Below are positions 59,700 through 63,980 of a DNA stretch of 64,000 bases, piece after piece (position 1 is the stretch's first letter; each line of letters begins with the position of its first letter). Made by a program: the position numbers and the translations under genes. The notes under the pieces are model-generated. The model made no database searches. It saw only the letters and a list, made by a program, of their open reading frames with translations, and was not told where the DNA came from. The stretch lies in assembly GCF_000026545.1 (NCBI RefSeq), contig NC_011601.1; one strand, 5' to 3'. The DNA is from Escherichia coli O127:H6 str. E2348/69 (GTDB lineage: Bacteria; Pseudomonadota; Gammaproteobacteria; Enterobacterales; Enterobacteriaceae).

Positions 59700-60122
59700 G
59701 TGGCAAAAGTTTTTACACAAGAAGAGCGGGAAAAAATTAAAGGGCAGGTTGTTGAACTCGTACGCCAGAGTGGGCGCGAGACGTTACGACAACTGGAAAC
59801 TAAAACTGGGGCAACAAGATATCTGATGAGCGTTCTGGCCAGAGAGCTGGTTGCCAGTGGCGATGTATACAACTCTGGTTACGGGTTATTCCCGTCTGAA
59901 CAGGCGCGTAAGGACTGGCAAAATGCCCGTAAAAAGCTCTCAAGGGCAAAGCTGAAGAAACCATCTGCGGTTGATCCGGACCTTATCTGGTCATTACCTG
60001 ACGGAGAAATACGTCGCTACGACAGGCGTCAGAACATAATCTGTCGCGAGTGCCGGAAGAGCGAAGCTATGCAGCGCGTACTGGCGTTTTATCAGGGGAA
60101 TTTTGAGGAGGTGGTGCGGTGA
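59700..60122 (+). CDS. Hypothetical protein in the P/helicase-loader position
   Basis: 140 aa, GTG start, basic, CRECRK motif; no ATPase motif seen. Confidence 0.45.
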   Translation: MAKVFTQEEREKIKGQVVELVRQSGRETLRQLETKTGATRYLMSVLARELVASGDVYNSGYGLFPSEQARKDWQNARKKLSRAKLKKPSAVDPDLIWSLPDGEIRRYDRRQNIICRECRKSEAMQRVLAFYQGNFEEVVR

Positions 60123-60365
60123 GTGAATCAAAATGCCAGGTTAATGGCAACAAGATAGAACCATGTGCAGCACTGGCAAAGTCCCTTGAGCGTGATGCTG
60201 AATACACGATGCGAAAAGGTCTGCTGATATACAAAATCTGAAATGAGAGTTTAACTCGCGGTCCTGATTTTGTGATGTTGCGTTCCGGTGAATTTTCTAA
60301 ATTACCAGTTCGGGTTTCATTTTGTCCGTTCTGTGGTGAAAGTCTGAAAACGTGGGAGAACAGAA

Positions 60366-60677
60366 ATGAATGAAATTAAAGAAATACCAGTAGTACGTGA
60401 TGAATATGGCTGCTGGACGCATCCTGAATATGAAAAATTCTGTGACGGTCGGGAATATATTTCAACGGAAGAGTTTAACGCCTGGATGGAGGAAAATAAT
60501 CTTCAATACGTCCTCTGCTTCAGAGATGAAGGATGTGCTGACCTTGATGCGTGTGATGCTGATATTTCTGCATGGGAACCGGAACGACCAGAGGGCAATG
60601 GATGGTTTATTGGTTCAATACATGACACCGAAGATGGCCCGGTTTGTGTATGGCTGAGAAATAAGGTCGAAGCATAA
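60366..60677 (+). CDS. Hypothetical acidic Cys-containing prophage protein (nin-region type)
   Basis: 103 aa, strong ORF with good start context. Confidence 0.5.
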   Translation: MNEIKEIPVVRDEYGCWTHPEYEKFCDGREYISTEEFNAWMEENNLQYVLCFRDEGCADLDACDADISAWEPERPEGNGWFIGSIHDTEDGPVCVWLRNKVEA

Positions 60678-60809
60678 AGGCTATAAACCGACTAACAACT
60701 AAATACTGAAGATTTAAATCAGAAACGATTTTTATTAAATCCTTAACCGGAGGGATTCCTGCACCCTCAAATCATCAGGAGGCCGCCCGAAAGGGCGGTG
60801 GAGATAATA

Positions 60810-61331
60810 ATGGGAATAACTAAAGAACGATTGTTGGAAATAGCAAACCTTAGTGATTGGGCATTAAGTGATGAGAGAATTGTTTCTCCTCATGCTTATG
60901 AGTCAGTTACAAGTATAGAAATAACAACAATGGCTAGAATGCTGCTTGGTTATTTCAAAATAGAAAATAAAAAACAGATGGATAGTAATGTTGATATATG
61001 TGAGATTTTAGACGATTGGGGGGCTTGGGTTGTGGCTGGTAATAGTTCTATTGATTGGCAGGAAATAGCTGATAAATATAAAAATGTTGTTCCTCATGGT
61101 AAAAAATCACGTCGTCAGTGCAGCAATGATGAAGGGCGAATTATTGACATTAGTATCCTTAGGTTAGAAAGATATAAGCAACAAGAATATGAGTTAATTG
61201 TTGCTCATTTCGTGATTGGTTTATCTCTTCGTGCTATTGCAAAGCAACAAGGATGTTCAGATGGAACAATTCGTAAAAGATTGCAAAAAGCCTTAGGTTT
61301 TTTGACTGGATATATAGCAATTACCAGTTAA
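60810..61331 (+). CDS. Q: Late-gene antitermination protein Q (933W/H-19B-type Q family)
   Basis: Matches recalled 933W-type Q: WGAW, SRRQCSNDEG, and C-terminal HTH GLSLRAIAKQQGCSDGTIRKRLQKALGFL. Confidence 0.75.
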   Translation: MGITKERLLEIANLSDWALSDERIVSPHAYESVTSIEITTMARMLLGYFKIENKKQMDSNVDICEILDDWGAWVVAGNSSIDWQEIADKYKNVVPHGKKSRRQCSNDEGRIIDISILRLERYKQQEYELIVAHFVIGLSLRAIAKQQGCSDGTIRKRLQKALGFLTGYIAITS

Positions 61332-61969
61332 GAGTCAGCGGTTTTTTTACCAGTGTAATGGTATAAGGATACTCCCATGTGTCTTACATGATATGGAAGC
61401 GCTGTTGCTGGATGCTTTGTGATACTCTTAAAGCGGAGGGGAGAGCCTTCCGCTTCAATTTCTGCGTCCGAAACGGTCGTAGAGAAAAATTCTTTCCATT
61501 CATTGAATTTTACTGCTGATTTGTCAGACTTTATATAAATTAGAATTCCTCCATGATCGTCACGTGACGTACCCGTGCCGTAACGTTCGGTTAGCTGAAT
61601 CCAGCCATTATGAATAGATTTGGGGCCTCTCCATAATTTTGCTTCACCGATCCATTCGAATTTTCCGAATTGATGTTTAACTAATAAATCAACGTGACCG
61701 CCATGTTGAGTATCATGTTCAACATCATAAAACCTACCTTTCAGGAAATTTTTGATCGACGCTGTTAGCTCGTCCTCTCCCCACTTAGCATCTTGATAGA
61801 AGTGTTTGTCATTTTCTAAATTCTGAATAGCGTCGTCTAAATCTTCATAGAGTTGCTTTACAAAAATATTTTTGTCTGCAGCTAATTTTCTTTGAACCAT
61901 TCCCCTAAATTCAGGATCCATTCTAATTAATGATTGAAGGTCTGCAGTACAGATGTTTACATCACTCAT
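61328..61969 (-). CDS. Cassette gene C: predicted PD-(D/E)xK-like nuclease (213 aa)
   Basis: ATG 61969 overlaps stop of gene B; motif GEDE...HVDLLV...EWIGEAK (E, D, ExK spacing typical of restriction-endonuclease fold); AT-rich. Confidence 0.6.
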   Translation of the reverse strand: MSDVNICTADLQSLIRMDPEFRGMVQRKLAADKNIFVKQLYEDLDDAIQNLENDKHFYQDAKWGEDELTASIKNFLKGRFYDVEHDTQHGGHVDLLVKHQFGKFEWIGEAKLWRGPKSIHNGWIQLTERYGTGTSRDDHGGILIYIKSDKSAVKFNEWKEFFSTTVSDAEIEAEGSPLRFKSITKHPATALPYHVRHMGVSLYHYTGKKTADS

Positions 61970-62390
61970 GCAGACTCTCCAAAAGACTCGAAGGAGTAAA
62001 GTATGGATAAAGATACTGGCTAAAATTATCAACCAATTCGCCAGTTTCTGGATGGTAAAAACTTCCTGTGTCTAAAGCATAGGAAATAAGATCATCTTCA
62101 ACTGGTATTGGTTCTTCCGTTAAATTATCAATGTATTGAAAATGCATATCCAATAGATGTGCTTTATAGCTAGATAAATAATCAGTTGCTTTTATTAGCA
62201 GGATATAGCCATCTTTCGTATCAGTTAGATAGGTTAAACCATTGATAAGGGTTTTGTATGTAAAGTGATTGATATTTTTAGCATCTTTACTAACCAGAAA
62301 AAGAAAAAGATCACGACACACACTGCGAACAGGATCATTAAAATCCTGCTCTATTTGCGTGATAATGTCGTGATATATACTCTTTTTCAT
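61962..62390 (-). CDS. Cassette gene B: hypothetical protein (142 aa)
   Basis: ATG overlaps stop of gene A (ATGA); no recognised motif; AT-rich. Confidence 0.6.
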   Translation of the reverse strand: MKKSIYHDIITQIEQDFNDPVRSVCRDLFLFLVSKDAKNINHFTYKTLINGLTYLTDTKDGYILLIKATDYLSSYKAHLLDMHFQYIDNLTEEPIPVEDDLISYALDTGSFYHPETGELVDNFSQYLYPYFTPSSLLESLHE

Positions 62391-63478
62391 TTATGGCCTG
62401 ATGATCTCGCTCTTCTTTTCTCTTCACAGGACTTAACAGAATCCAATATTTTTTCAACAATAAATATAATCGAATCAATGTTGTTACAGTTCTTCGCAAT
62501 TGCTTCATGCAACCTAATTCTAGGATTATCAAGCATTGTCCTTTTTCCTGGTAATATTAACTCTACTGATAAAATATGTGAAGAACTTTGTGGTAAATCC
62601 CAAATTTTTCCCAACTTAAACTTTGTCAATATTGGGCTTGCGGACTCTCCACTATGATGGTAAACATCTTGACGCAAACACTTTTGACTTGGTTTGAGTT
62701 TTAAAGAACTTGTATTGCCATCTGAGGTGATAAAAGATACATGAGAAATTCTGCCATCTACTTTTTCGTAAAGATCTTGTATTGAACCAAATAATTCAAG
62801 AGGATTGTTTAAAATAACGCCAGCTTCTTTTTTTATAAATTTAGCCACAAGGTATTGTTGAGGCTGTGATTCACTTCTTGGAAGGATAGATAAATCAATC
62901 GTAAGAATTAATATTTTTTCTGCAGGCATTAGCATGATGGTATTAAAGCATTGCGTGACTTGGCGTGTTTTGCATTTTATTTCTCCACCATTAGCACGTA
63001 ATTCCATACCCGCATCGCTAAGATGTGTTGGGTCAAGCTCTATCACTTCAGTGTAATACGCTTTGGATAAAAAAACAGCAGTGTCAATTTGTTTATCACG
63101 AATGATATCTTGACGTAGTTCAGCAAAATGCAGCTCAGTATCAGCAACTAACAGCTCCTCTCTGGATAAAGGAATTGGGTATTTTTCTGAGAAGGGGCTA
63201 TTGTCCTTTTTCTGATTTGTGAAAATTGTTTGTAATTTTGCTACGTCTTCATCGGTGATTCTATAAATAGAAAGTAATCGATTCCCGCTAAAAATTAAAC
63301 CTTTCCAGAAATCGTCGATTCTGTCTTTTAGGTCGGGATTATGCTGAACTACACTATTTACACGTTCAATAAAAAGGGGTAATCCTTGGGCCGTTACACC
63401 CAGTGATGAACCAAGAAGCTTACGGGTGTTGCGCCAGCCAAAGCGTGAATTGATGTTTTTTACTGTTTGCTCAAGCAT
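62387..63478 (-). CDS. Cassette gene A: hypothetical protein (363 aa)
   Basis: ATG 63478 preceded by AAGGAAG; no Walker A or other motif recognised; AT-rich. Confidence 0.6.
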   Translation of the reverse strand: MLEQTVKNINSRFGWRNTRKLLGSSLGVTAQGLPLFIERVNSVVQHNPDLKDRIDDFWKGLIFSGNRLLSIYRITDEDVAKLQTIFTNQKKDNSPFSEKYPIPLSREELLVADTELHFAELRQDIIRDKQIDTAVFLSKAYYTEVIELDPTHLSDAGMELRANGGEIKCKTRQVTQCFNTIMLMPAEKILILTIDLSILPRSESQPQQYLVAKFIKKEAGVILNNPLELFGSIQDLYEKVDGRISHVSFITSDGNTSSLKLKPSQKCLRQDVYHHSGESASPILTKFKLGKIWDLPQSSSHILSVELILPGKRTMLDNPRIRLHEAIAKNCNNIDSIIFIVEKILDSVKSCEEKRRARSSGHK

Positions 63479-63824
63479 TAACACTTCCTTAATTTTCCCT
63501 TAACAATTTAGGGTGCTAAACTTTTTTGCGCAGTTTACATAAAAAAATAGTGCGTACGCAAAAACTATCTAACATGATGAGCTTTAACCGGGAAATTTGT
63601 ATATGTTGTGAGCATAAAGTTGGCTGAGAAATCTAAAACGGGTAGAATGACTGCGGGTGCTTGAGGCTATCTGTCTCAGGCATGAACACCAAAAGGCAGA
63701 TAGAGAAAAGCCCCAGTTAACATTACGCGTCCGGCAAGACGCTTAACATTAATCTGAGGCCATATCTATGCTCTACACACGTAGGTTAGCCTCTTACGTG
63801 CCGAAAGGCAAGGAGAAGCAGGCT

Positions 63825-63980
63825 ATGAAGCAGCAAAAGGCGATGTTAATCGCCCTGATCGTCATCTGTTTAACCGTCATAATGACGGCACTGGTAACGA
63901 GGAAAGACCTCTGCGAGGTACGAATCCGAACCGGCCAGACGGAGGTCGCTGTCTTCACAGCTTACGAACCTGAGGAGTAA
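63825..63980 (+). CDS. hokD: Hok/Gef-family type I toxin (HokD/RelF-like)
   Basis: 51 aa MKQQKAMLIALIVICLTVIMTALVTRKDLCEVRIRTGQTEVAVFTAYEPEE; in-frame upstream extension from 63768 (mok-like). Confidence 0.9.
   Translation: MKQQKAMLIALIVICLTVIMTALVTRKDLCEVRIRTGQTEVAVFTAYEPEE

Follow-up and report, generated by a model that had tools for sequence, protein, structure and literature searches.

A DS-21-type cassette with a predicted RdgC-like protein and a putative nuclease in the ompW prophage of Escherichia coli O127:H6 E2348/69

DS-21 (working ID TOXO) is an anti-phage system reported with DefensePredictor (DeWeirdt et al., Science 2026; PMC13092281, Tables S6-S8 and S11), where it is listed under the class 'Predicted novel defense gene' with the entry 'replicated TRUE'. 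Here we describe a related cassette of three genes, designated A, B and C, which lies on the minus strand of a 64,000-nucleotide (nt) stretch of DNA of E. coli O127:H6 E2348/69 (the whole stretch is referred to below as the window), inside a lambdoid prophage integrated beside ompW. The proteins of DS-21 itself, WP_001532221 (365 amino acids, aa), WP_021552536 (140 aa) and WP_001557682 (211 aa), are encoded in an ECOR-type E. coli prophage (PMC13092281). Cloned with its native promoter in strain MG1655, DS-21 gave a -log10 efficiency of plating of 4.48 on phage Bas1 (approximately 30,000-fold protection) and of 2.0 on Bas11 (100-fold), as well as smaller plaques for Bas3, Bas9, Bas67 and T3; lambda was unaffected (Table S7, PMC13092281). 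The BASEL phages Bas01-Bas13 are T1-like Drexlerviridae. DS-21 was validated by this phenotype, its mechanism was not studied, it is not discussed individually in the main text of the paper, and RdgC and RexA are never mentioned there (PMC13092281). The authors' HHpred results assign protein 3 to PDDEXK nucleases (DpnII-MboI, 0.96) and to LmuA_effector_PDDEXK (94.7), and protein 2 to winged helix-turn-helix proteins (0.8) and DUF5939 (0.94), with only a weak HeH/SAP motif (0.64) for protein 1 (PMC13092281). No follow-up paper on DS-21 was found in a literature search.

Relation to DS-21 and gene structure

All three proteins of the cassette are homologous to their DS-21 counterparts, with BLASTP identities of 51% over 359 aa for A (E 3e-140), 54% over 136 aa for B (E 7e-54) and 60% over 208 aa for C (E 9e-92). 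The E. coli prophage variant used for this comparison (locus L002) corresponds letter for letter to the TOXO/DS-21 proteins of Table S8. Judged from its sequence, the cassette belongs to the DS-21 family, as a diverged yet intact representative, and the defence family is already published and hence not undescribed. Both systems consist of the same three co-directional genes in the same order, with protein lengths of 365, 140 and 211 aa in DS-21 and of 363, 142 and 213 aa in the window; both have the 8-nt overlap between B and C and the invariant nuclease residues described below, and in both a lambdoid prophage is the carrier and a PF06530-type Q gene stands tail to tail with the cassette. They differ in that their sequences have diverged to saturation of synonymous sites and in that the A/B junction, an overlap of 4 nt in the window, is a gap of 10 nt in the prototype. 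Since the DS-21 homologue (51, 54 and 60% identity) protects MG1655, the cassette of the window very probably acts as an anti-phage module too.

The initial annotation of this DNA had interpreted the three genes as a defence module, which the protection of MG1655 by DS-21 supports. It had further regarded the module as undescribed and belonging to no named family, a claim that no longer stands after the publication of DS-21 in 2026 (PMC13092281), and had named clear homology to a characterised system as one of the findings that would speak against it. Such homology exists as far as the phenotype is concerned, by which DS-21 was validated, but not with regard to mechanism, which is uncharacterised in DS-21. 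The accessions of the window proteins are absent from the DefensePredictor supplements, and a literature search by their RefSeq accessions or PHROG numbers gave no match. The family as such was already known as DS-21; added here are the RdgC-like fold predicted for A, evidence of how broad the family is, and its association with Q genes.

The features of the cassette and its surroundings are summarized in Table 1. The three minus-strand open reading frames, their ATGA and 8-nt overlaps and the AAGGAAG ribosome-binding site ahead of A were all found where the initial annotation had placed them. In most homologous loci the A/B junction is likewise an overlap or a gap of at most 10 nt. The RefSeq/PGAP annotation starts C at M17 (61921), which yields a protein of 197 aa and a gap of 40 nt after B; the start giving 213 aa appears better supported, because homologues align from residue 1, a Shine-Dalgarno sequence (GGAGAG) is present and the same 8-nt overlap occurs in the RefSeq coordinates of DS-21.

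Table 1. Features of the DS-21-type cassette and of its borders (positions are those of the window)
Feature	Position	Strand	Description
Gene A	62387..63478	-	363 aa; predicted RdgC fold, extended by helices at the N terminus; homologous to DS-21 protein 1
Gene B	61962..62390	-	142 aa; acidic protein, predicted winged helix; homologous to DS-21 protein 2
Gene C	61328..61969	-	213 aa; predicted PD-(D/E)xK nuclease and putative effector; homologous to DS-21 protein 3
Catalytic core of C (predicted), residues 65-130	61580..61777	-	AlphaFold2 (AF2) secondary structure (B-linker-C model) mapped to C numbering, together with invariant columns
Shine-Dalgarno sequence AAGGAAG	63484..63490	-	5 nt 5' of the ATG of A at 63478; read from sequence
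A/B stop/start overlap ATGA	62387..62390	-	Read from sequence
B-stop/C-start 8-nt overlap ATGAGTGA	61962..61969	-	Read from sequence; GGAGAG 5 nt 5' of the ATG of C
Non-coding region 5' of A, expected site of the cassette's own promoter	63479..63654	-	Adjoins the sok/hok element at 63655-63830
Q-like gene, PF06530-type, convergent	60798..61331	+	177 aa; ends in a 4-nt overlap with the stop of C; PHROG 79, E 1.8e-34
sok/hok regulatory element, Rfam RF01794	63655-63830	+	117 bits; directly 5' of hokD; right edge of the rare block

The G+C content (GC) of the cassette is 36.5%, compared with 48.7% for the window (C, 0.389; B, 0.336; A, 0.363), and the GC at third codon positions of the three genes is 0.27-0.33; the GC of the replication genes is 0.50. 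The AT-richness that the initial annotation had noticed relative to the flanks is thereby confirmed by computation, except that the adjoining Q-like gene is equally AT-rich (0.345).

Predicted structures of the three proteins

Protein C is predicted, from its sequence and its model, to be a PD-(D/E)xK nuclease with the restriction-endonuclease fold. The alpha-beta-beta-beta-alpha-beta core of that fold was found in the AF2 model, in the form of a helix with E65/D66, a strand with D94, a strand with E109-x-K111 and a helix with Q125, so that the putative catalytic D lies on strand 2 and the (D/E)xK motif on strand 3. These residues are conserved: across 27 homologues with identities down to 27%, the invariant positions are E65, D66, H85, G91, H92, D94, W106-I-G-E109-A-K111 and Q125, and the WIGEAK motif is invariant in 22 paired sequences. 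Both the E...D-x14-ExK pattern and the nuclease fold that the initial annotation had read into C are thus present, and the pattern, whose lack of conservation would by that annotation have spoken against it, is invariant in the 27 homologues. A weak match of C to PDC-S54 (E 1.6e-3) was also obtained. No methyltransferase was found in the cassette, among its annotated neighbours or in the homologous loci examined.

Protein B shows structural matches to winged-helix proteins and is predicted to be soluble (grand average of hydropathy, -0.25). It is acidic in all 31 cassettes, with isoelectric points (pI) of 4.3-5.9. DUF5939 (PF19363) gave no match in hmmscan searches of 23 diverse B proteins, and any relation of B to this family, the HHpred value of 0.94 reported for DS-21 protein 2 notwithstanding, appears to be remote. 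A model of B fused to C through a Gly-Ser linker of 25 residues reached a predicted template modelling score (pTM) of 0.81, with the linker disordered (predicted local distance difference test, pLDDT, below 50). Because this score was obtained despite the disordered linker, AlphaFold seems to place B against C, a hint of a B-C interface.

For protein A, the predicted structure has a pLDDT of 88 and a pTM of 0.86. RdgC was the sole match in the PDB at E<=1e-3 when this model was searched with Foldseek (E 1.6e-5), and the base and centre domains of the RdgC fold could both be recognized, so that A is predicted to have an RdgC-like fold. It differs from RdgC (PDB 2OWL; PF04381) by an identity of only 7-10%, by additional helical structure at the N terminus (residues 1-62) and by a long C-terminal helix, and it had no match in Pfam, PF04381 included, even at E<=10. 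The A family appears from its sequences to be separate from housekeeping RdgC. The fold group of RdgC, RexA, IML3 and CHL4 binds double-stranded DNA non-specifically, and RexA is part of the exclusion system of the lambda prophage (PMC11077077) and modulates the lambda switch (RexA structure, NAR 2024, PMC11077077). The present model is the first structural reading of the largest DS-21 protein as RdgC-like and would tie DS-21 to the RexA/RdgC group of DNA-binding folds.

Searches against Pfam, NCBIfam and PADLOC 2.0 (the last a check which the initial annotation had recommended) gave no credible match for A or B and nothing informative for C, and were likewise uninformative for distant members of the family. 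Profile searches of PDB sequences with A, B and C were without a match, and all three proteins fall in PHROGs of unknown function. The statement in the initial annotation that A and B carry no enzyme signature agrees with these scans and fits sensor or adaptor roles for the two proteins.

Family breadth and prophage setting

Word-indexed searches retrieved 45 C-type, 32 A-type and 7 B-type clusters, all of them gammaproteobacterial and all annotated as 'hypothetical'. An exhaustive profile search with A yielded 764 representatives at 50% identity, all of the A type and assigned to the three-gene context with proteins of roughly 340-390 aa; the best 150 of these are mostly full-length, at about 330-400 aa. 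A scan of IMG/VR with a profile of C gave 61 viral loci, on each of which hidden Markov models for A, B and C were then run. Among the loci that do not run off a contig, all but four have A, B and C in identical order with short gaps or overlaps, and the order is kept even where the identity of C is only about 30-35%. The four exceptions comprise one locus in which B was not detected and three in which A is frameshifted and B and C are intact (L013, 5485-6581; L029, 8487-9583; L067, 8443-9509). Comparisons of nonsynonymous and synonymous substitution rates (NG86) with six homologous loci gave no ratio, synonymous sites being saturated in almost all of them.

The family is also found outside prophages. 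One occurrence lies in an integrase island of Vibrio parahaemolyticus adjoining rpoD, another adjoins Tn7-like TniQ, TniB and AAA_22 genes, and further copies are present in other metagenomic contigs. A distant DS-21-like cassette (L009, 7894-10044, minus strand; also L010 and L011) has Tn7-like TniQ and AAA_22 genes on one side and on the other adjoins a gene whose 716-aa SEC-C/PD-(D/E)xK product is homologous (33% identity over 399 aa, E 3e-75) to DS-23, which like DS-21 is a validated DefensePredictor system; this neighbour supports a defence-island setting. Some distant cassettes include an extra small helix-turn-helix (HTH) gene 5' of A or 3' of C, for example at L009 4970-5437 (plus strand) and L075 3761-4186 (plus strand). 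The gene in L009 matches the PADLOC model RmrA as well as HTH models of the control-protein type (E 6e-7). No such gene accompanies the copies in enterobacterial prophages, which suggests a different regulation. The cassette of the window occurs in 13 of 5,426 complete genomes and the DS-21 prototype in another 12, the two sets of genomes being different, and in a megablast search of INPHARED phages the match was limited to 59 bp on the hok side.

In E2348/69, sequence that is common to thousands of E. coli genomes stops at approximately 60,800 and resumes at approximately 63,642, and the segment in between, about 2.85 kb long, is a single rare, AT-rich block that holds both the Q-like gene and A-B-C. 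The sequence on the sok/hok side is present in about 2,400 E. coli genomes without the cassette. The Q-like gene is 38% identical to the PF06530-type Q beside DS-21 (E 1e-25), and in 17 of the 31 non-redundant loci, distant clades included, C stands tail to tail with a homologous Q, even at about 33% identity of C. A position adjoining such a Q is typical of the family in prophages. On the 5' side of the AT-rich block, RefSeq annotates a small hypothetical pseudogene with an internal stop (60119-60373; L001 10920-11174), which is followed by an open reading frame of 103 aa and intermediate GC (0.43) at 60366-60677.

The ompW prophage has two unrelated antiterminator genes, namely the Q-like gene of 177 aa and a second Q of 229 aa (L001 16646-17335), which lies about 2.4 kb beyond the cassette beside tRNA-Ile, tRNA-Arg and the lysis genes. 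This second, downstream gene is probably the late-gene Q of the prophage. The DS-21 prototype is located between Q and the holin gene, whereas the copy in the window lies 5' of hokD, DUF968, RusA and the second Q, all of which intervene before the holin and lysis genes. The initial annotation had placed the cassette in the slot between Q and the lysis genes where stx sits in Stx phages; the PF06530-type Q neighbour is indeed the usual home of the family, but with these genes in between the position in E2348/69 is not of the stx type. No terminator was found between the Q-like gene and C, from which we infer that antiterminated early transcription might run antisense through the cassette, possibly as a self-silencing device. 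The conserved association with PF06530-type Q genes may bear on how prophages avoid self-targeting.

Proposed mechanism, alternatives and comparison with known systems

We consider it somewhat probable (about 0.6) that DS-21-family defence with A as sensor, B as adaptor or inhibitor and C as nuclease effector explains the cassette. The lysogen would probably express it from its own promoter, in the direction opposite to that of the phage operons. A, as an RdgC-like horseshoe or ring on double-stranded DNA, would sense a feature of invading phage DNA, e.g., free ends or the DNA intermediates that arise when T1-like phages replicate or recombine. B, made in a fixed ratio by translational coupling, would either bridge A to C or keep C inactive, and C, as a BamHI-like PD-(D/E)xK nuclease, would cut DNA when released or recruited, with the result that phage DNA is destroyed directly or that the infected cell is killed. 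Phage protection has been shown for the DS-21 prototype only, and we infer the A-B-C complex, the binding of DNA by A and the trigger.

Several observations weigh against this proposal. The global template modelling score of A to RdgC is 0.32-0.37, with a different arrangement of the domains, and hhalign comparisons with the A profile gave probabilities of 0.28% for E. coli RdgC and 0.3% for RexA, in both cases against a single-sequence template of limited sensitivity. In a wide alignment of A few basic residues are conserved (D195, R269 and H274 are among the conserved positions of A) and the median pI of the family is 5.9, so that DNA binding by A is presumed rather than proven. The three loci with a frameshifted A and intact B and C fit decay of the cassette, and they also show that B-C without A is tolerated. 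At 51-60% identity to DS-21 the copy in E2348/69 could differ in its phage range, or it could be silent, since it is AT-rich and no promoter was recognized, a promoter scan having found no consensus match to a sigma-70-like minus-strand promoter 5' of A.

The main rival, rather unlikely in our estimate, is abortive infection of a toxin-antitoxin-like kind, in which a toxic C would be neutralized by the acidic B (a possible DNA mimic) through direct binding until A senses infection and frees C to degrade host and phage DNA, whereupon the cell dies before phages are released. It differs from the DS-21-type defence proposed above mainly in that B is an inhibitor instead of a bridge and in the suicidal outcome. 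The acidity of B in all 31 cassettes, the translational coupling of B and C with an overlap kept in DS-21, the pTM of 0.81 for the B-linker-C model and the retention of intact B and C in the loci with a broken A are all consistent with it. However, the 4.5-log drop in plating of Bas1 caused by DS-21 fits abortive infection and direct immunity alike, the canonical winged-helix fold of B is commoner in DNA or protein adaptors than in known nuclease antitoxins, and no toxin-antitoxin model of PADLOC or NCBIfam matches A, B or C. The tolerated loss of A argues against A itself being the antitoxin for C, a role which is unlikely because B and C stay intact in the three loci in which A is frameshifted.

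Far less probable is a prophage-internal regulator or exclusion function tied to Q, which would modulate the late transcription or the lysis-lysogeny decision of the carrier, or exclude lambdoid phages, with protection against lytic phages as a by-product. The convergent PF06530-type Q in 17 of 31 loci, the single mosaic block formed by the Q-like gene and the cassette in E2348/69 and the effect of RexA, from the fold group of A, on the lambda switch (PMC11077077) would suit such a function. Cassettes without Q or phage genes nevertheless exist (the Vibrio island by rpoD, the Tn7-like cargo and the copy beside the DS-23 homologue), and DS-21 protects MG1655 from lytic T1-like phages when it is carried alone on a plasmid, outside any prophage, and is without effect on lambda (Table S7, PMC13092281). 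A recombination or repair module serving the phage's own replication, in which an RdgC-like RecA modulator would act with a structure-specific nuclease after the manner of the nin-region RusA, is suggested by the location in a nin-like region near RusA and DUF968 and by RdgC being a recombination-associated protein, but was rejected as hardly credible and largely refuted: the cassette runs counter to the direction of the early and late operons, occurs also on non-phage elements and is missing from most related prophages (13 of 5,426 genomes have it), A has no sequence relation to RdgC, and the phenotype of its homologue DS-21 is one of defence. The non-phage contexts and the phenotype of plasmid-borne DS-21 thus make both Q-tied regulation and a role in recombination unlikely.

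The DS-21-family reading places a system of this type in the reference enteropathogenic E. coli strain E2348/69, where its genes are annotated as three hypothetical proteins and are invisible to PADLOC 2.0, Pfam and NCBIfam. The predicted fold of A suggests a testable sensor-adaptor-nuclease mechanism for DS-21, in a family that is broad by its number of A-type representatives and is carried by prophages, Tn7-like elements and integrative islands.

Among known systems, RexAB resembles the cassette as a prophage-borne defence that is expressed in the lysogen, the larger of its two proteins having a fold of the RdgC/IML3/CHL4 group. The partners of A are a soluble acidic winged-helix protein and a putative nuclease and not the membrane protein RexB, and the cassette lies beside Q in the nin-like region, far from the repressor, and not next to cI. 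Membership in RexAB was rejected, there being no RexB and no sequence relation of A to RexA. From the type II enzymes of the BamHI, OkrAI, BstYI and BglII group, C differs by having about 60 aa of additional helical structure at the N terminus and by being always paired with A and B; a type II restriction-modification system was rejected, no methyltransferase being present in or near the cassette.

Lamassu combines the PDDEXK effector LmuA with the SMC-like LmuB and with LmuC, Hachiman combines the nuclease HamA with the helicase HamB, and JetB of Wadjet is a winged-helix KITE protein. The PADLOC models of these three systems matched none of A, B and C, either in the window or in the distant members scanned, and membership in Lamassu was rejected, no SMC component being present. 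The likeness to Lamassu concerns only the nuclease core of C, which the HHpred results of the DefensePredictor authors relate to LmuA-PDDEXK (PMC13092281). The cassette differs from all three systems in having no SMC protein, helicase or ATPase, its candidate sensor being an RdgC-fold protein, and resembles them in its proposed logic, in which a DNA-binding or clamping sensor would be coupled to a PD-(D/E)xK nuclease. It is conceivable, as a tentative proposal, that the cassette represents a new mechanistic class, in which an RdgC-type toroidal or horseshoe clamp, A, distinct in evolution from housekeeping RdgC and from RexA, would recognize a structural feature of invading phage DNA and license the BamHI-like nuclease C through the acidic winged-helix adaptor B, and in which antisense transcription from the Q junction would silence the cassette of a prophage during the lytic cycle of its carrier; such a class would parallel, without using ATP, the SMC-based logic of Lamassu and Wadjet.

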